From the NCBI GenBank assembly GCA_004295015.1, contig SHNE01000026.1, positions 8,675 to 72,674 on the forward strand: a stretch of 64,000 nt of DNA. Direction: 5' to 3'. The stretch is from Bacteroidota bacterium (GTDB lineage: Bacteria > Bacteroidota > Bacteroidia > AKYH767-A > 2013-40CM-41-45). The notes under the pieces were generated by a model. The model saw nothing but the letters and a program-made list of their open reading frames with translations, had not been told where the DNA came from and made no database searches. This document shows positions 12,628-53,736 of the stretch, one piece after another. The position numbers were made by a program, and so were the translations under genes. Each line of letters begins with the position of its first letter. Position 1 is the first letter of the stretch.

Positions 12628-13236
12628 TTAATGACTAAGGATTGCACTTTTAAAGCCAATCCTTTTCCTTGGCATTGGCGGAGGAGAAATCAATTGCTTG
12701 AGCGTCCTGAAAATTAGTTGTATTTCATTGTCGTGCTTACCGGCTAAAATTTCCTGAGAATTTATTTTCTTCTCCATTTGTTCTAACTTTATTAAAATGT
12801 CTTTATTCTTCAATAACATTTCACGAAGCTTAGCATACACTCTGATGATTTTCAAATTTACTTGAATCGCAGTTTCACTATTCAAAACTCCTGAGAGCAT
12901 GAGTACACCATAATCAGTAAATGCAAAAGGCCGCCCTCGTCTACCTCCCCAACTTGAACTTGAAGTCGCAAATTGCGACTTCAAGTTTTCGAACTCTTTC
13001 TTCGACAATTGAAACATAAAATCCTTGGGAAACCTTCCAGGATTTCGTTTCACCTGTTCATTTAATCTTTTCGTTTCTACTCCATACATTACAGCGAGGT
13101 CTTCATCAAGAATTACCTTTTGACCTCTGATGAAATGAATTTTACTCAGAACGAATGATTCATTTATTTGTGTCTTCTTACCGATTGGGTTAAACTTAAA
13201 TCTTTGACAAAAATGAATTAAATTAACAGGCAACAC
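12628..13236 (-). CDS. ORF6N-domain (KilA-N-related) protein with C-terminal coiled coil
   Basis: 202 aa. The IRGQKVILDEDLAVMYGVETKRLNEQVKRNPGRFPKDFMFQLS...GGRRGRPFAFTDYGVLMLSGVL region is the hallmark of Bacteroidota ORF6N-domain proteins. The true start may lie inside the ORF. Confidence 0.7.
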   Translation of the reverse strand: MLPVNLIHFCQRFKFNPIGKKTQINESFVLSKIHFIRGQKVILDEDLAVMYGVETKRLNEQVKRNPGRFPKDFMFQLSKKEFENLKSQFATSSSSWGGRRGRPFAFTDYGVLMLSGVLNSETAIQVNLKIIRVYAKLREMLLKNKDILIKLEQMEKKINSQEILAGKHDNEIQLIFRTLKQLISPPPMPRKRIGFKSAILSH

Positions 13237-16046: not shown

Positions 16047-17177
16047 ATGCAATTCAAAATTCATCACAAAGACCCCGGCTCAAAGGCAAGGGCAGGCGAA
16101 GTTCACACGGCTCATGGGAAAATTAAGACACCCATTTTTATGCCGGTTGGAACTGCCGGAACAGTCAAGGCAGTCCATCAACGTGAATTAAAAGACGATA
16201 TCCTGGCCCAGATAATTCTTGGAAATACATACCACCTTTACCTCCGTCCCGGACTTAACATTTTGGAAAAGGCAGGTGGCCTTCATCAGTTCATCAATTG
16301 GGATCGTCCTATTTTAACTGATAGTGGTGGCTATCAGGTTTATTCTCTTGCGGACAAACGCAAAATCAAGGAAGATGGAGTTTCCTTTACTTCACATATC
16401 GATGGCTCCAAGCATTTTTTCTCTCCCGAAATCGTTATGGACATACAACGTACTATCGGTGCTGACATTATCATGGCATTTGATGAATGTACTCCTTACC
16501 CTTGCGATTACAACTATGCTAAAAAGAGCATGGAAATGACTCACCGTTGGCTCAGTCGTTGTTGTGCCAGAATTGATGAAACAGAAAATAAGTATGGCTA
16601 TGAGCAGAGCTTATTTCCTATTGTGCAGGGAAGTGTATATAAAGACTTAAGAATAAAATCGGCAGAATATATCGCATCAACAGGACGAGAAGGAAATGCC
16701 ATCGGCGGACTATCGGTTGGAGAACCTGTTGAGATCATGTACGAAATGACTGAAGTTGTTTGCGGTATATTGCCGGAAGATAAACCACGTTACCTGATGG
16801 GTGTCGGAACTCCAATCAACATCCTGGAGAATATTGCGTTAGGCGTAGACATGTTCGATTGTGTGATGCCAACCAGAAATGGCAGAAACGGAATGCTATT
16901 CACCAAAAACGGAATCATTAATATCCGCAATGAAAAATGGAAAGATGATCTATCGCCAATAGACCCCGATGGGACATCCCATGTTGACTCAACTTATTCC
17001 AAAGCGTACCTTCGTCACCTGATAATAAGCAAAGAAATCCTTGGAGCACAAATTGCGACAATACATAACCTGGCATTTTATCTTTGGCTTGTAACCGAGG
17101 CGCGCGAAAAAATTATTGATGGCACATTTACAACCTGGAAAAATAAAATGGTGAAGGTGCTAGGACAAAGACTGTAA
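16047..17177 (+). CDS. tgt: Queuine tRNA-ribosyltransferase (tRNA-guanine transglycosylase)
   Basis: 376 aa. ARAGEVHTAHGKIKTPIFMPVGTAGTVK, LTDSGGYQV, and Zn-site cysteines and histidine near the C-terminus are all present. Confidence 0.95.
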   Translation: MQFKIHHKDPGSKARAGEVHTAHGKIKTPIFMPVGTAGTVKAVHQRELKDDILAQIILGNTYHLYLRPGLNILEKAGGLHQFINWDRPILTDSGGYQVYSLADKRKIKEDGVSFTSHIDGSKHFFSPEIVMDIQRTIGADIIMAFDECTPYPCDYNYAKKSMEMTHRWLSRCCARIDETENKYGYEQSLFPIVQGSVYKDLRIKSAEYIASTGREGNAIGGLSVGEPVEIMYEMTEVVCGILPEDKPRYLMGVGTPINILENIALGVDMFDCVMPTRNGRNGMLFTKNGIINIRNEKWKDDLSPIDPDGTSHVDSTYSKAYLRHLIISKEILGAQIATIHNLAFYLWLVTEAREKIIDGTFTTWKNKMVKVLGQRL

Positions 17178-17184
17178 TTTTTTG

Positions 17185-17295
17185 GCCACGAATACGAATA
17201 AAAGCACATTGAAATCAATATTTAAAAACTCAAGATTCATAAAGATTAATGATGAGGACCAGTCAAATAGCAGACTATATTCGTGCATTCGTGGC
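17185..17295. repeat. Solo, diverged copy of a structured repeat element with terminal inverted repeats (5' gccacgaatacgaat ... attcgtgcattcgtggc 3')
   Basis: It begins 8 nt after the tgt stop codon. The arms at 17185-17199 and 17279-17295 are reverse complements, with a 2-nt deletion in the 5' arm. The interior aligns at roughly 75% identity with the array units at 17863-18460. Confidence 0.7.
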
Positions 17296-17423
17296 AAAAT
17301 AAAAAGCCAATCTTAGCAAGCATTAATCACTAACCTAAAAATGAAAAACCCTAATATAAAACACACACCAAACTATTAATTACAACTCCAGATAACATTA
17401 TTTTCGCAAGAAATTAGTAACGT

Positions 17424-17798
17424 TTGGAAAACATACTACTTAAAGAAGAAAGTTTCCTCATAATTGGCAAATGCTTTGAAGTACACAATAATCTTGGAGC
17501 AGGATTCTTAGAAATTGTTTATAAAGACGCTTTAGAATATGAATTTAGAAAAGCAGGCATTCCATTCGAACGTGAAAAAAGATATGAAGTGAACTACAAA
17601 GGAATAATTCTGGCACATAAGTTTTATGCTGACTTTGTTATATATGACAAAATAATTCTTGAAGTAAAAGGAATTTCAGCAATAAGCGAAGAGTTTGTGG
17701 CACAGGCTATTAATTACTTAAAAGTTTCCAAAAACAAATTAGCTATAATTGCAAACTTCGGTGAATTGAAAATGAATTATAAAAGAATAGTTTTGTGA
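17424..17798 (+). CDS. GxxExxY protein (PD-(D/E)XK nuclease-like superfamily)
   Basis: 124 aa. IIGKCFEVHNNLGAGFLEIVYKDALEYEF contains the family-defining G-x-x-E-x-x-Y motif, and the length is typical for the family. Confidence 0.85.
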   Translation: MENILLKEESFLIIGKCFEVHNNLGAGFLEIVYKDALEYEFRKAGIPFEREKRYEVNYKGIILAHKFYADFVIYDKIILEVKGISAISEEFVAQAINYLKVSKNKLAIIANFGELKMNYKRIVL

Positions 17799-17862
17799 TA
17801 ATTTAAAGAGTGGATGCAAGTGAACATAAGGGTGCTACTTTATAACTAGCCTATATATTCTG

Positions 17863-18460
17863 CCACGAATGCACGAATAAAATCGCATCGAAATTGGTGA
17901 TCAAAACCTCAAGATGGACAAAACTTAATGATGAAGAATAATCAGACAGCAGAAAACATTCGTGCATTCGTGGCAAAATAAAAAGACAAAATTAATGCTC
18001 TATAAAAAGTCAATCGCAGAATGCACTAATTACGAATAAAAACACCTTGAAACTGTTGATTAAACCTCAAGATGGACAAAACTTAATGATGAAGAATAAT
18101 CAGACAGCAGAAAACATTCCTGCATTCGTGGCAAAATTAAAAGACAAAATTAATGCTCTATAAAAAGCCAGTCGCAGAATGCACTAATTACGAATAAAAA
18201 TACCTTGAAACTGTTGATTAAACCTCAAGATGGACAAAACTTAATGATGAAGAATAATCAGACAGCAGAAAACATTCCTGCATTCGTGGCTAAATTAAAA
18301 GACAAAATTAATGCTCTATAAAAAGCCAATCGCAGAATGCACTAATTACGAATAAAAACACCTTGAAACTGTTGATTAAACCTGAAGATGGACAAAACTT
18401 AATGATGAAGAATAATCAGACAGCAGAAAACATTCCTGCATTCGTGGCAAAATAAAATAA
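17863..18460. repeat. Tandem array of about 3.8 units of a 158-bp structured repeat, same family as 17185-17295 and 53544-53658
   Basis: Unit phase points (acctcaagatggacaaaac) fall at 17906, 18064, 18222 and 18380, a period of exactly 158 bp. Units are roughly 97-99% identical. The leading partial unit, 17863-17974, is bounded by perfect 17-bp inverted repeats: gccacgaatgcacgaat at 17863-17879 and attcgtgcattcgtggc at 17958-17974. Confidence 0.85.
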
Positions 18461-18464
18461 GCAA

Positions 18465-19541
18465 TTGAAAATTTTAGATAAATATATCATTCGGAAATTC
18501 CTGGGGACATTTTTTTTCTCCCTGACGCTTATTATAGTAATTGCTATTGTCTTTGACATCTCTGAGAAACTCGATGACTTTATAGAACGAAAAGCTCCAA
18601 TAAGAGCGATCATTTTCGATTATTACCTGAATTTCATCCCCTATTTCGCAGACCTCTTCGCGCCGCTGTTTATCTTCATCTCAGTAATTTACTTCACAGC
18701 CAGAATGGCTGCCAATACAGAGATTGTTGCCATTCTCAACAGTGGAATAAGTTTCCGAAGAATGCTATTTCCCTATTTTCTATCTGCAGGAATTCTTGCA
18801 GCCCTATCCTTCTACTTCAACGGATGGGTGATTCCACATTCAAACAAAGTAAAACTGGAATTTGAAAATACGTATATAAAAAACCCTGTAGAATTTAAAG
18901 ACAGAAACCTGCACCGCCAAATTAGTCCAGGTGTTTTCATGTATCTTGAAAGTTATAATAACTCCGAAAACATAGGCTACCGTTTTTCATTGGAAAAAAT
19001 TGAAAATAAAAAAAGAGTCTGGTTCCTTGCTTCAGACAGAATCCTTTGGGATAGCACTGAGAGTAAATGGAGAATTGAAAATTATTACACAAGGGGTGTT
19101 GATGGTTTTAACGAATACCTCAGGAGTGGAAAAAGTTTAGACACTGTTCTCCCTATCTCACCTGCTGATTTCAAGAGACGACTAAATATTATCCAGGCCA
19201 TGGACACGCCTGCGCTGAATGAATTTATTAAAGAAGAGCGATTATCCGGCAGTGGGAATGTGAACGCATACCTCGTAGCCAAATTCAGAAGAATATCTGT
19301 TCCGTTTTCAACTTTTATTTTAATGCTTATCGGAGTCTCACTCTCAAGTCGAAAGGTACGCGGAGGGATTGGAGCCCAGCTGGGGCTGGGAATAACTATC
19401 AGCTTTGCATATATACTCTTTATGCAAATCGCCGATACCTTTGCAATTAATGGAAGTATTCCACCATTACTGGCAGTATGGACTCCAAATATTGTGTTTG
19501 CAGGAATTGCAGTAGCTCTCCTACGCAATGCGCCAAAGTAA
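18465..19541 (+). CDS. LptF/LptG-family (YjgP/YjgQ) LPS export permease
   Basis: 358 aa. The N-terminus MKILDKYIIRKFLGTFFFSLTLIIVIAIVFD is characteristic. Three N-terminal TMs, a periplasmic beta-jellyroll region and three C-terminal TMs are predicted. Confidence 0.8.
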   Translation: MKILDKYIIRKFLGTFFFSLTLIIVIAIVFDISEKLDDFIERKAPIRAIIFDYYLNFIPYFADLFAPLFIFISVIYFTARMAANTEIVAILNSGISFRRMLFPYFLSAGILAALSFYFNGWVIPHSNKVKLEFENTYIKNPVEFKDRNLHRQISPGVFMYLESYNNSENIGYRFSLEKIENKKRVWFLASDRILWDSTESKWRIENYYTRGVDGFNEYLRSGKSLDTVLPISPADFKRRLNIIQAMDTPALNEFIKEERLSGSGNVNAYLVAKFRRISVPFSTFILMLIGVSLSSRKVRGGIGAQLGLGITISFAYILFMQIADTFAINGSIPPLLAVWTPNIVFAGIAVALLRNAPK

Positions 19542-42801: not shown

Positions 42802-42874
42802 AAAAAGGGCATTTTTGGGTAGCGAAGGTAAGAAAATTTGGGGAAAATTCAGGTAGCAAACTCTCATTATTAAG

Positions 42875-42917
42875 CACCAAGATTTCTATGTTATAAACCA
42901 ACATAGAAATCTTGGTG
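42875..42917 (-). promoter_or_regulatory. Perfect 18-bp inverted repeat (caccaagatttctatgtt / aacatagaaatcttggtg, 7-nt loop) in the valS 5' leader
   Basis: Read directly from the sequence. It lies about 75-115 nt upstream of the valS start. On the valS transcript a U-run precedes the hairpin rather than following it, so it is not a canonical intrinsic terminator. Confidence 0.35.
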
Positions 42918-43074
42918 TCAAAAAATAATTATGAACGCGACGAATATTTAAGGTTGCAAAATGAAACCTTAAAGAATGACAGTGCGAAACATTGAATTAA
43001 CCAATCTGAAAATTTTCAAAATAAGGCCAAATTGTAATGACTAATTTTGTTTTTACCAGGCTTTATAAAATTGA

Positions 43075-43317
43075 AACACTTTCTCTCAATCAACCTTAAA
43101 ATGGAATATTAATCGCTCTCCAAAGAGATTCATGTTCCAATTATCAAATGAGGAATGTCTTTTTTTGATATCACAAACTGTGACATCAAAAAAAGAAAAA
43201 AGAGGTGGGAGACGAAAACCAGCAATGGCCTTTACAGAACATGGAGTCACCATGCTTACCAGCATTTTAAAAAGTCAAAAGGCACAAAGTCCGCAAAGAT
43301 TTTCTCCGAAATTATAA
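43075..43317 (+). pseudogene. Remnant of an ORF6N-domain gene (C-terminal half of the domain only)
   Basis: The frame open from 43075 translates to ...LKWNINRSPKRFMFQLSNEECLFLISQTVTSKKEKRGGRRKPAMAFTEHGVTMLTSILKS. This aligns with [63 protein letters not shown] of the intact paralogue at 12628-13236. The N-terminal IRGQ...half and the C-terminal coiled coil are absent. Confidence 0.5.
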
Positions 43318-49122: not shown

Positions 49123-50961
49123 ATGAAAAATTATTTATTATTTCTGACCCTGATATTCAGTGCACCGGTTTTTTCAACAACTACGAGTGTCACAAGTTTA
49201 GGTGATGCAGGTACAGGTTCCTTAAGGGAAATCATCAACACCGCCACAGCAGGTGATACAATCGACTTTTTAGTTGCCGGAACAATCACTTTATCCGGCG
49301 GTGAAATTATTATTAATAAAGACCTTGTTATCCTATCTTCCGGACCTGCAAATCTGACATTGAGCGGAAACAGCAGCAACAGAATACTAAACATAACCGG
49401 AGGCAATGTATTCATCAGCAGTGTTTCTTTCGAGAATGGTGTTTTAAGCGGATCAGGTGGCGCAATCCAAAACTCTTCTCCGGATACGGTCACAATTGAA
49501 AAAAGCGTATTCAATTCCTGTGCTGCCGGTATTGATGGTGGTGGAATAAAAAATACGGGTATGTTTTTAAGAATAATTGACTGCACATTCACCAACAACC
49601 ATGCAGGTTTTGACGGTGGTGGCTTATATAGCAGCACAGGTTTGGTAACAATAATCGGCTCTACATTTAATGGAAACAGCTGTTCGATTTCCGGAGCAGG
49701 TATCAGGACGGTCGGCGGTACCTGCAAACTAATTAACAGCACTCTTTCAGGAAATAATGCAACAGTAAGTGGTGGTGGATTTGAGGGAATCCTAGATATT
49801 ATGAATAGTACGATCACGGAAAATAATTCTCAGAATGGAGGTGGTGCAAAAACCACAGGGGCGGTTTTTCAAAATACAATTGTATACAACAATCATGTTT
49901 CCGGTAATAGCCCTGATATTGCAGGTCCAATAAACTCTAACGGAAATAATATATTCGGTGATACATCAGGATGTAGCGGTGCGATTTTCAGCGATCTCAT
50001 TAATATCAATCCAATGCTGGATATCTTAGGCCTAAATGGAGGTTATACCGCCACCCATGCAATAATGAGTACAAGTCCGGCTATTGATGCAGGAACCTGT
50101 CTGGGTGCACCATCAACAGACCAAAGAGATATAAATCGTGTTGGCTTTCCTGATATTGGAGCATATGAATTTGGTGGCACACCATTCGTTATAAATCAAA
50201 TATCAGAATCGATTTGCAACGGAGATGTATATGTTTTTGGCAACCAAAACCTGGATACGGCAGGTGTATATATGGAAACTTTTCAAACATTGGCTGATTG
50301 TGATTCAACAGTTGAGCTCACTCTAAGCATTAAACAAATCTATAATGAAACTGCCAACGCCACGATCTGCATAGGTGACTCCTTAATTTTCGGATCACTG
50401 ACACTCCTTAGTTCAGGTACTTATACTGAACAATTTTCAAGTTCATTAAATTGCGATTCAACGGTGGAGTTAACTTTGACAGTAACAGAACCCGACATTA
50501 CAGTAAGTCAAAGCGGCAAAACATTGAGTGCGGCCGGAACTGCAGAATCCTATCAATGGATCGACTGCAACACAAATCAGATAATACCCAATGACACAAG
50601 CCGTGTATTTATTGCACTTGCTAATGGTCAATATGCAGTGATAGTTACTGAGAATGGCTGCTCTGATACATCAGCCTGCTATAATGTGACTACGGTCGGT
50701 ATTGCAACAGAAAATTTTTCATCAGGAATTTCAGTCTATCCTACAATGGTAAAAAGTAAGACTTCGGTACGATTCATCGAGTCTCAAAAATTTGTCAACA
50801 TAATATTGATGGATATAAGCGGCAGAGAAATTCACAGAGAGAAATATTCAGAAACAAACACATTAACTCTTGATCTCAGCATTTGCAAGCCCGGAAACTA
50901 TTTTATCCAAGTGGAATCAGGAGAGAAAAACAGCATTCATCGGGTAGTTAAAATAGAATAA
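49123..50961 (+). CDS. Right-handed parallel beta-helix protein with Pmp-type (GGA[IL]...FxxN) repeats and a T9SS type A C-terminal domain
   Basis: 612 aa with a signal peptide. LGDAGTGSLREIINTA is an N-terminal motif. Repeats GGAIQNS/IDGGGIKNTG/FDGGGLYSS/SGGGFEG alternate with F-x-x-N. The C-terminus SVYPTMVKSKTSVRF...GNYFIQV is a T9SS C-terminal domain. Confidence 0.7.
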   Translation: MKNYLLFLTLIFSAPVFSTTTSVTSLGDAGTGSLREIINTATAGDTIDFLVAGTITLSGGEIIINKDLVILSSGPANLTLSGNSSNRILNITGGNVFISSVSFENGVLSGSGGAIQNSSPDTVTIEKSVFNSCAAGIDGGGIKNTGMFLRIIDCTFTNNHAGFDGGGLYSSTGLVTIIGSTFNGNSCSISGAGIRTVGGTCKLINSTLSGNNATVSGGGFEGILDIMNSTITENNSQNGGGAKTTGAVFQNTIVYNNHVSGNSPDIAGPINSNGNNIFGDTSGCSGAIFSDLININPMLDILGLNGGYTATHAIMSTSPAIDAGTCLGAPSTDQRDINRVGFPDIGAYEFGGTPFVINQISESICNGDVYVFGNQNLDTAGVYMETFQTLADCDSTVELTLSIKQIYNETANATICIGDSLIFGSLTLLSSGTYTEQFSSSLNCDSTVELTLTVTEPDITVSQSGKTLSAAGTAESYQWIDCNTNQIIPNDTSRVFIALANGQYAVIVTENGCSDTSACYNVTTVGIATENFSSGISVYPTMVKSKTSVRFIESQKFVNIILMDISGREIHREKYSETNTLTLDLSICKPGNYFIQVESGEKNSIHRVVKIE

Positions 50962-50976
50962 TCGCATTTCCTGGAA

Positions 50977-51012
50977 TAAAAAAAACCACGACGAATAGCC
51001 GTGGTTTTTTTT
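50977..51012. terminator. Bidirectional rho-independent terminator between convergent genes
   Basis: An A8 run precedes a ccacg/cgtgg stem (50986-50990 pairs with 51000-51004) with a 9-nt loop, followed by a T8 run. It is symmetric, so it can terminate transcripts from both strands. Confidence 0.6.
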
Positions 51013-51030
51013 ATTCCATAGAAAGAGATA

Positions 51031-53479: not shown

Positions 53480-53543
53480 ATCAAGTCATACATAGGTTTG
53501 GTCGAGCTGACATTCGCCTCCTATATGCAAATCCGCTTTTATA

Positions 53544-53658
53544 CCACGAATGCACCTGTAAAAGCTCCGAAATTTTGTGATCGCTAAAGCAATTTGACGA
53601 AAATAAATTTAAAACTGATGCGCAAGAATTAAATGCGACGTCATTCGTGCATTCCTGG
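53544..53658. repeat. Solo copy of the structured inverted-repeat element (ccacgaatgcac ... gtgcattcctgg)
   Basis: It lies in the convergent intergenic region between 53479 and 53737. The arms are reverse complements with one mismatch and enclose about 90 nt. It shares the cacgaatgcac/attcgtgcattc motif with the elements at 17185-17295 and 17863-18460. Confidence 0.6.
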
Positions 53659-53736
53659 CAAAAAAATTTCAATCAGCTCCTGAACGACTATCATCTGCAA
53701 ATAGTAGCACGTGTGTATGCAGTTCTGACCTCTTCA

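Follow-up and report, generated by a model that had tools for sequence, protein, structure and literature searches.

The stretch of DNA considered here, called the window below, comprises 64,000 nucleotides of contig SHNE01000026.1 from a Bacteroidota bacterium (assembly GCA_004295015.1), and the locus of interest in it is a small gene of the GxxExxY family lying among copies of a palindromic repeat between two host genes. The upstream host gene is tgt, encoding tRNA-guanine transglycosylase (16047-17177, + strand; TIGR00430, E-value 2.3e-146). The downstream one encodes a permease of the LptF/LptG family (18465-19541, + strand; TIGR04408, E-value 1e-48) and is designated lptG-like, its score of 165.7 bits standing against a cutoff of 240; the gene falls under the curated cutoffs for LptG and also for LptF, PF03739 is matched in relatives, and the apparent TTG start at 18465 is found alike in relatives (L205:5328). 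The GxxExxY gene itself (17424-17798, + strand, 124 amino acids, TTG start) matches TIGR04256 and PF13366 (PDDEXK_3). An initial annotation, made from the sequence alone, had placed a solo element, this gene and an array of 158-bp units between tgt and the lptG-like gene; all of them are there, with offsets of a few bases.

The solo copy is a long hairpin element of 111 bp (17185-17295) whose first base lies 7 nt past the tgt stop codon; its close placement had been recognized, although the gap had been given as 8 nt. Its left arm (17185-17199, GCCACGAAT--ACGAAT) is 2 nt short, its right arm (17279-17295) reads ATTCGTGCATTCGTGGC, the loop measures 79 nt, and the palindrome reaches into a T-run and an A-run to span 17178-17302. 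It is followed at 17299-17333 by a shortened spacer and a degenerate left arm, that is, the beginning of a second array unit truncated by the gene segment, with 77-80% identity to 18002-18036, 18160-18194 and 18318-18352. On the other side of the gene, the first array hairpin (17862-17974) has the perfect 17-bp termini reported before (17862-17878 and 17958-17974) and again a loop of 79 nt. Tandem Repeats Finder delimits the array at 17873-18457, with a period of 158 and 3.7 copies (95% matches, score 1056). Right arms recur at 17958, 18116, 18274 and 18432, whereas among the units only the first possesses a perfect left arm, units 2-4 carrying degenerate ones (GCACTAATTACGAAT) at 18023, 18181 and 18339. 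The array stops 7 nt before the start codon of the lptG-like gene, as close as had been claimed in kind, but not the 4 nt given.

Pairwise identity of the array units is 96.2-98.1%, so that they are indeed near-identical, if slightly less than the 97-99% of the initial annotation. These units are young copies, and the recent local amplification proposed earlier is consistent with their identity. The solo copy had been estimated at about 75% identity to the array units, a value that agrees with the 78% found for unit 1 but not with the 62-66% found for units 2-4. Since the solo copy runs on into the spacer, in shortened form, and then into the degenerate left arm, the two sides of the gene are pieces of one array. 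Repeat copies thus bracket the gene, as had been seen, but they belong to a single array that contains it, and not to a solo copy facing an independent array. A 34-nt inverted repeat (17273-17884, 85% complementary), formed by the solo copy's right end and the array's left end, encloses the gene in outward orientation (GTGGC ... gene ... GCCAC).

The initial annotation had missed the array piece after the solo copy and the degenerate arms of units 2-4, together with a third long hairpin element at 53543-53659 (left arm ACCACGAATGCAC..., right arm ATTCGTGCATTCCTGGC; nhmmer E-value 2e-23). The latter sits between the convergent 3′ ends of a gene with a type IX secretion system (T9SS) tail and a fatty-acid hydroxylase gene, and brings to three the element sites in the window. 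With up to three mismatches, the 17-mer arm occurs seven times in the window against 0.12 expected, and none of 100 shuffles reached seven. A terminator at 50986-51004 had been put forward as a possible relative of the element terminus; it shares with it just the 5-bp CCACG/CGTGG, and the region 50961-51029 is an ordinary bidirectional intrinsic terminator (A8-CCACG-loop-CGTGG-T8) between convergent genes. Other strong palindromes of the window, at 42866-42926 (27 nt, 85%), 43158-43196 (18 nt, 94%) and 12957-12987 (15 nt, 100%), are unrelated to the element and may be terminators or protein-binding sites.

The product of the GxxExxY gene scores 128.1 bits to TIGR04256 (E-value 2e-37, cutoff 35) and 117.3 bits to PF13366 (E-value 6e-34, cutoff 22). 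Its AlphaFold2 model, with a predicted local distance difference test (pLDDT) score of 93.3, is a minimal PD-(D/E)XK core, the best structural matches being Cas4 and Hjc. Residues E30 (in the GxxExxY motif), D70, E80 and K82 are invariant and correspond to the D...E-x-K of PD-(D/E)XK enzymes plus the glutamate of the N-terminal helix. Judging from this predicted fold and from the invariant catalytic residues, the nuclease looks active. A sub-threshold Pfam match to T7 endonuclease I (E-value 0.007) is a hint only. Searching the PDB by sequence found no relative of the protein, PADLOC, consulted for known defence genes, gave no match with it, and the Pfam scan of the flanked gene returned no match to Y1_Tnp. 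Relatives are numerous: 6,685 were retrieved at E <= 1e-5 in a word-limited search.

The association of this family with inverted arms extends far beyond the window. Scanning one genome per species with the pattern ATTCSTGCATTCSTGGC yielded at least 120 stretches, for each of which 8 kb was fetched. The 1834 open reading frames (ORFs) in the 120 motif stretches listed include six GxxExxY genes, five of which are separated from the motif by 7-374 bp; enrichment near the motif was seen in these 120 stretches for no further small ORF family, nor for a transposase-like one. All five motif-flanked genes have arms or arrays on each side, in varied layouts: one hairpin before the gene and one after it (L095); a pair of left arms before it and a pair of right arms after it (L056); left arms in threes at 23-bp spacing before it and at least two right arms after it (L031); and arrays of ~88-bp or ~125-bp units on either side of the gene (L119, L045). 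The converse approach gave the same picture. In 80 metagenome loci chosen by protein alone, 77 of them usable, the two 200-bp flanks of the gene were matched against each other for the highest-scoring ungapped inverted repeat, and 265 control ORFs served for comparison. A score of at least 12 was reached by 69% of the 77 GxxExxY loci against 1.9% of the controls, with medians of 14 and 8, respectively. The common layout is left arm, gene, right arm, and the stop codon often touches or overlaps the right arm. A complete hairpin on either side of the gene is the minority layout, found in this window and in L095, L140 and L209, while L129 displays an array of hairpin units, one of which holds the gene in its loop. 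Arrays of units next to GxxExxY genes recur in unrelated metagenome-assembled genomes (MAGs; L045, L119, L129, L162). GxxExxY genes and inverted arms therefore go together, and the supposition that nuclease gene and repeats belong together, made for this locus, holds for the family generally.

The arms obey a common grammar without sharing their letters: an outer end (G)CCAC or CCGC, then two to four tandem words of 8-10 nt of the form CAC-N-RATT (for example CACGAAT, CACAGAT, CACGGAT, CACTAAT, CACGGAA, CGCAGAT or GGCGAAT). In the subclade of the window gene the arm reads GCCACGAATGCACGAAT / ATTCGTGCATTCGTGGC; arms of the CACAGATT type are another kind, with a protein clade of their own. Arm and protein sequences change together. 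With up to three mismatches and within 600 bp, the 17-mer accompanies 8 of the 10 loci whose protein is at least 65% identical to that of the window; the share falls to about 5 in 14 loci for 57-62% identity and to about 1 in 55 under 56%. Among the GxxExxY genes of the motif stretches, the flanked ones, from different orders, encode proteins 62-75% identical to the window protein, against 35% for the single unflanked one. A Mantel test of protein identity against shared flank 8-mers gave a rho of 0.27, with no value as high in 2000 permutations. Arms within one element stay complementary while they diverge between elements: over 24 arm pairs, 93.6% of cells are paired against 71.9% in shuffles, and both sides have changed in 88 cells against 30.6 +/- 5.9, a number matched in none of 500 shuffles.

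As a repeat, the arm is widely distributed, and the recurrence anticipated by the initial annotation is found both elsewhere in the genome and in other genomes. The stretches with a motif come nearly all from Flavobacteriales, Chitinophagales, Cytophagales, Bacteroidales, Ignavibacteria and Chlorobi, with few from Acidobacteriota and others; some matches within coding sequence look like chance matches of the degenerate pattern. A phage-borne motif was dismissed, only 4 arm-bearing stretches being found in 2.9 million viral contigs. Arms occur as tight hairpins (loop of 1-30 nt), long hairpins (loop up to 171 nt), lone half-sites and tandem arrays; the median hairpin loop is 22 nt, and array periods of 23, 51, 57, ~88, ~125 and ~180 bp were observed outside the window. 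The units are thus, as first described, inverted-repeat-bounded, non-coding and multi-copy, of the type of MITEs (miniature transposable elements with inverted repeats) or of repetitive extragenic palindromic (REP) sequences and bacterial interspersed mosaic elements (BIMEs). Gene-less elements are intergenic and lie mostly at gene 3′ ends. Of 56 paired hairpins, 15 occupy gaps of convergent, 2 of divergent and 18 of co-directional genes; the corresponding background counts are 72, 61 and 202 (Fisher p 0.008, convergent versus divergent).

Several arrangements of the repeat deserve mention in their own right. In two Bacteroidales MAGs, satellite-like arrays of the 17-mer stand near the beginning of the stretches (L014:1-810, period 57 bp, at least 14 copies; L038:1-380, period 51 bp, at least 5 copies) and yield spurious ORFs of up to 265 amino acids in several frames. 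In a Cryomorpha MAG (L045:1-1800), the ~125-bp array units are composite modules that join a hairpin of the GCCACGAATGCACGAAT type to a second, G+C-rich hairpin between A-runs (aaaagccgcgagcggctcaaaaaaa). Elsewhere (L030, L053, L087, L089, L097, L121), tracts of other tandem words, such as cacagagg, cgcagatt, cacaaagaa, gatcaaagaa and cataactcat, directly adjoin the 17-mer. Arms of different word types may be juxtaposed or nested.

Comparison of orthologous sites informs on the history of these elements; for the relative P0243, gene spacing only was used. In two relatives with a Tgt 93% identical (L205, L206), the gap between tgt and lptG is 196 bp and holds neither gene nor array, but a long hairpin orthologous to the solo copy of the window and a decayed second unit. 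Two others (L207, L208; Tgt 89%) have a gap of 173 bp with two short hairpins. By contrast, the gap extends over 865 bp in a Flavobacteriales MAG (L209; Tgt 87%) and contains a long hairpin, a short hairpin, an intact 124-amino-acid GxxExxY gene with a GTG start and further arms. Presence of gene and array thus varies at this orthologous site, from which a hairpin is never missing, and tgt-lptG gaps differ in the way for which the initial annotation had proposed to look; like the recurrence of the motif, the outcome of this check favours a genuine element. In the window as in L209, 63 nt separate the stop codon from the left arm that follows. The GxxExxY gene at this site may be ancestral and lost twice, or may have been gained twice.

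L214 and L216 both have the hairpin of the third site (53543) in the corresponding position. A contig of the same species and an 81% relative keep it, the relative with a diverged loop; in a 75% relative the gap measures just 79 bp. The same-species contig L214 differs from the window by three substitutions within the right arm of 17 nt, and the rest of the interval has only a few changes; an arm mutation hotspot or an assembly error at the hairpin could be the cause. In two orthologous pairs, identity amounts to 88-94% for the right arm and 65-82% for the left arm, against 62.5% for the loop. Two further host sites, ychF-idi (L175/L199) and sua5-cca (L145/L185), carry a GxxExxY element in two genomes each. 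The GxxExxY proteins share 64-67% identity there and the products of the adjacent host genes ~80-98%, and at ychF-idi the arm words differ from one element to the other. This points to recurrent use of certain sites or to a fast co-divergence of gene and arms. An invertible segment was also considered, and was dropped because the gene has the same orientation at all three orthologous site pairs.

The best reading of these data is that the block between tgt and the lptG-like gene is a local instance of a widespread module composed of a GxxExxY (PF13366) gene of PD-(D/E)XK type and its own palindromic flanks, and they suggest an undescribed kind of selfish DNA element. The elements at 17185 and 53543 and the 158-bp array are gene-less copies of the arms of this module, and gene-less palindromes in general are best understood as derivatives or targets of the gene-bearing form. 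From the association of gene and arms, which is observed, we infer a mechanism based on the nuclease. The enzyme, probably as a symmetric dimer, would recognize and cut its own palindrome or the cruciform extruded from it. Repair of the break from a gene-bearing copy would then spread the gene, or maintain it, inside palindromes in a homing-like manner, and the same cycle of break and repair, or unequal recombination, could produce arrays and seed gene-less copies. The 158-bp array would be a recent by-product of such break repair or unequal recombination. We give an even chance to this proposal, in which the nuclease recognizes its own arms, break repair spreads or maintains gene and palindromes in a way recalling homing or the REP-associated tyrosine transposases (RAYTs) and their REPs, and the array is a by-product. 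Its extension to PF13366 as a whole, namely that these proteins are palindrome- or cruciform-specific nucleases creating, spreading and maintaining their own REP-like palindromes in Bacteroidota, Ignavibacteriota, Chlorobiota and beyond, as a counterpart of RAYT/REP or as homing endonucleases of a dispersed repeat, is tentative and on balance doubtful.

Several observations weigh against this proposal. No enzymatic activity is known for any PF13366 member, and a survey of the PD-(D/E)XK superfamily gives the function of the family as unknown (PMC3424549). A protein of 124 residues has no obvious separate domain for reading a 17-bp arm. In the window, L095 and L209 the gene stands between two complete hairpins and is not central in one, so that a simple picture of a gene splitting its own target does not fit. 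In 115 of the 120 listed motif stretches there is no GxxExxY gene inside the 8 kb. At the tgt-lptG and 53543 sites, hairpins persist in relatives, and the divergence of GxxExxY between the window and L209 (73.6% in DNA, 78.4% in protein) about equals that of host genes (76.8% and 87.3% for tgt); the elements thus look long-resident and vertically inherited, and not recently mobile at these sites. No target-site duplication was recognized, the flanks being a T-run and an A-run within the palindrome, and there was no arm-free empty site among the comparisons. Arm pairs used in the covariation test had been picked by their inverted-repeat score. Finally, proteins 77-88% identical to that of the window are labelled Bacteroidia, Saprospiraceae, Chlorobi, Ignavibacteriales and Thermodesulfobacteriota, which suggests horizontal spread of GxxExxY across lineages, but this spread is suggestive only, as the taxon labels of MAG proteins can be wrong.

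One rival explanation is domestication. The palindromes would then be REP-like functional sites in DNA or RNA, serving as 3′-end stabilizers of mRNA, sites for nucleoid proteins or gyrase, or transcription punctuation, and GxxExxY would be an enzyme retained by the host for their maintenance or processing, as has been proposed for some RAYTs. The bias of hairpins towards gene 3′ ends, their persistence at orthologous sites and the better conservation of right arms than of loops in the two orthologous pairs all speak for it. Yet punctuation by intrinsic termination does not fit, as an A-run follows the stem on both strands; arm words vary by lineage along with the protein subclade, which is unexpected for sites of conserved host factors; and the gene is present or absent among close relatives. 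We regard this explanation as rather unlikely. Another possibility is that the ends belong to a MITE moved in trans by a hypothetical transposase, with GxxExxY as a passenger, for instance a defence or anti-restriction nuclease, and gene-less hairpins as ordinary MITEs. Terminal inverted repeats, small size and high copy number agree with it. Some transposon ends carry multiple transposase-binding sites, and the subterminal tandem words resemble such sites. But no transposase-like ORF family accompanies the motif in the 120 listed loci, GxxExxY is the sole cargo found, its stop codon overlaps the right arm at many loci, no target-site duplication is visible and the protein has no PADLOC match; such a passenger role appears quite unlikely. 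Hardly credible is a purely local tandem duplication without wider meaning, or an assembly artefact. The unit identity of 96-98% could be taken in this sense, and so could the behaviour of short-read assemblies, since Logan contigs of the same organism (L001, L002, L004) stop from a few to ~135 bp past the GxxExxY gene and resume 41 bp ahead of lptG; these repeats break short-read assemblies. However, the solo element and the gene are unchanged in independent assemblies, the same arm occurs at the third site of the window and in at least 120 stretches of other genomes, and similar arrays adjoin GxxExxY genes in L045, L119, L129 and L162.

It could also be asked whether the palindromes act in the transcript, where pairing of the arms would offer a stem of the RNase III type, as in the ORF-bearing intervening sequences (IVSs) of 23S rRNA, or a small RNA (sRNA) or attenuator regulating GxxExxY and its neighbours; the initial annotation had likewise considered a structured sRNA family. 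The block lies between co-directional genes, and a promoter and terminator scan of it gave no signal above shuffles, so that it is probably co-transcribed. The stems are strong, with predicted folding energies of -27.8 kcal/mol for the solo copy (z -4.5) and -39.6 kcal/mol for array unit 1 (z -7.1), and -27.8 kcal/mol for the third element (z -2.9). An ORF within the loop of a long stem is the architecture of 23S rRNA IVSs, which the present one resembles. Against this, array units 2-4 cannot fold alone (-16.8 kcal/mol, z -1.0). Rfam 15 gave no match at the gathering score over the whole window, and an E-value search of the region returned a lone chance match with E = 1. Applied to five long elements, RNAalifold retains nothing but the terminal stem of 18 bp; compensatory pairs are absent and the interior is unstructured. 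A hidden Markov model of the loop alone found no match beyond the source species and its nearest relative. The arms show 105 mismatches, of which 49 disrupt pairing in both strands alike, and those of G.U type do not favour the sense strand (10 versus 7). Exact arms are likewise unbiased in their orientation to transcription (23 versus 30 loci, p 0.41). The lack of an Rfam match, of a conserved loop and of a strand bias in G.U wobble leaves the sRNA reading unsupported. A T-run lies upstream of the stem and an A-run downstream, so that on either strand the stem leads into A and not into U residues, and the hairpins do not qualify as intrinsic terminators. All this speaks for a symmetric element at the level of DNA rather than for an sRNA or a terminator, and makes an RNA-level explanation very unlikely. 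The long loops were also compared with the GxxExxY gene as possible remnants of its deletion, and no similarity was found.

The module of nuclease gene and palindromic flanks remains the preferred reading. GxxExxY/PDDEXK_3 is a large family of no known function, and the link with the arms provides a hypothesis, namely that the protein binds or cuts its own arms. If true, this would be the first role proposed for PF13366 and would account for one class of repeats between genes in Bacteroidota and related phyla. A pairing of nuclease and palindrome that is sequence-programmable and exists in many natural variants could also interest tool builders. In the searchable literature, with subscription journals beyond its reach, neither an association of GxxExxY with palindromes nor the long arm strings is described; the papers listed for GxxExxY treat other topics, with a passing mention of the name.

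Set beside known systems, the block fails the defining tests of its closest analogues: it has no Y1 transposase, no GTAG or CGTC head and no transposase parent, and it is not in rRNA. A CRISPR array was discarded, as whole 158-bp units are 96-98% identical and leave no unique spacers. Integron cassettes share with the elements the attC-like features of imperfect palindromes (57-141 bp) with conserved ends and a variable middle, placed beside ORFs and in arrays; here, however, the R''/R' core GTTRRRY is lacking, GxxExxY is the one recurrent cargo, and copies lie scattered instead of being collected in a single array. On this anatomy, with arms that end in GCCAC / GTGGC and not in the attC core sites RYYYAAC / GTTRRRY, an integron origin was set aside, although no search aimed at an integrase was made. 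The ORF-bearing IVSs of 23S rRNA, encoding the four-helix-bundle protein 'S23p', are likewise sporadic and multi-copy, and a long stem encloses in its loop a small ORF whose function is not known; the elements described here, by contrast, lie outside rRNA, encode a protein of another fold and show no sign of RNA-level selection.

MITEs such as Correia/NEMIS, ERIC and RUP resemble the gene-less elements in many respects, being non-coding, 100-160 bp long, bounded by terminal inverted repeats, multi-copy, intergenic and co-transcribable; for Correia elements, too, no cognate transposase is known. They differ in that here no target-site duplication is seen, only the arms are conserved between genomes, and the coding counterpart with the same arms encodes a nuclease instead of a transposase. 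Homing endonuclease genes, among them that of the PD-(D/E)XK enzyme I-Ssp6803I, offer another parallel: a small nuclease gene lies in a pseudo-palindromic site that is uninterrupted elsewhere, it is present or absent at a fixed site, and its variants turn over there. In the present case, by contrast, a dispersed repeat takes the place of the unique conserved gene as putative target. At several loci, the window included, the nuclease gene stands between hairpins instead of splitting one, and cleavage is itself putative.

REP/BIME sequences and their RAYTs are a further close analogue. Both systems consist of short, multi-copy extragenic palindromes, often in arrays and biased towards gene 3′ ends, and of one small enzyme gene flanked by inverted copies of the repeat, and in both the repeat varies with the lineage of the enzyme. 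REPs are palindromes of 20-40 bp with a conserved GTAG or CGTC head (PMC3733652). The arms described here have no such head but GCCAC followed by tandem CAC-N-RATT words, and enclose loops of up to ~170 nt. The enzyme belongs to the PD-(D/E)XK superfamily (PF13366), whereas RAYTs are Y1 transposases of the HUH type, like TnpA of IS200/IS605. Should the proposed role of GxxExxY prove true, a second and unrelated class of enzymes would join the RAYT/REP paradigm for the spread of palindromic repeats in bacterial genomes.

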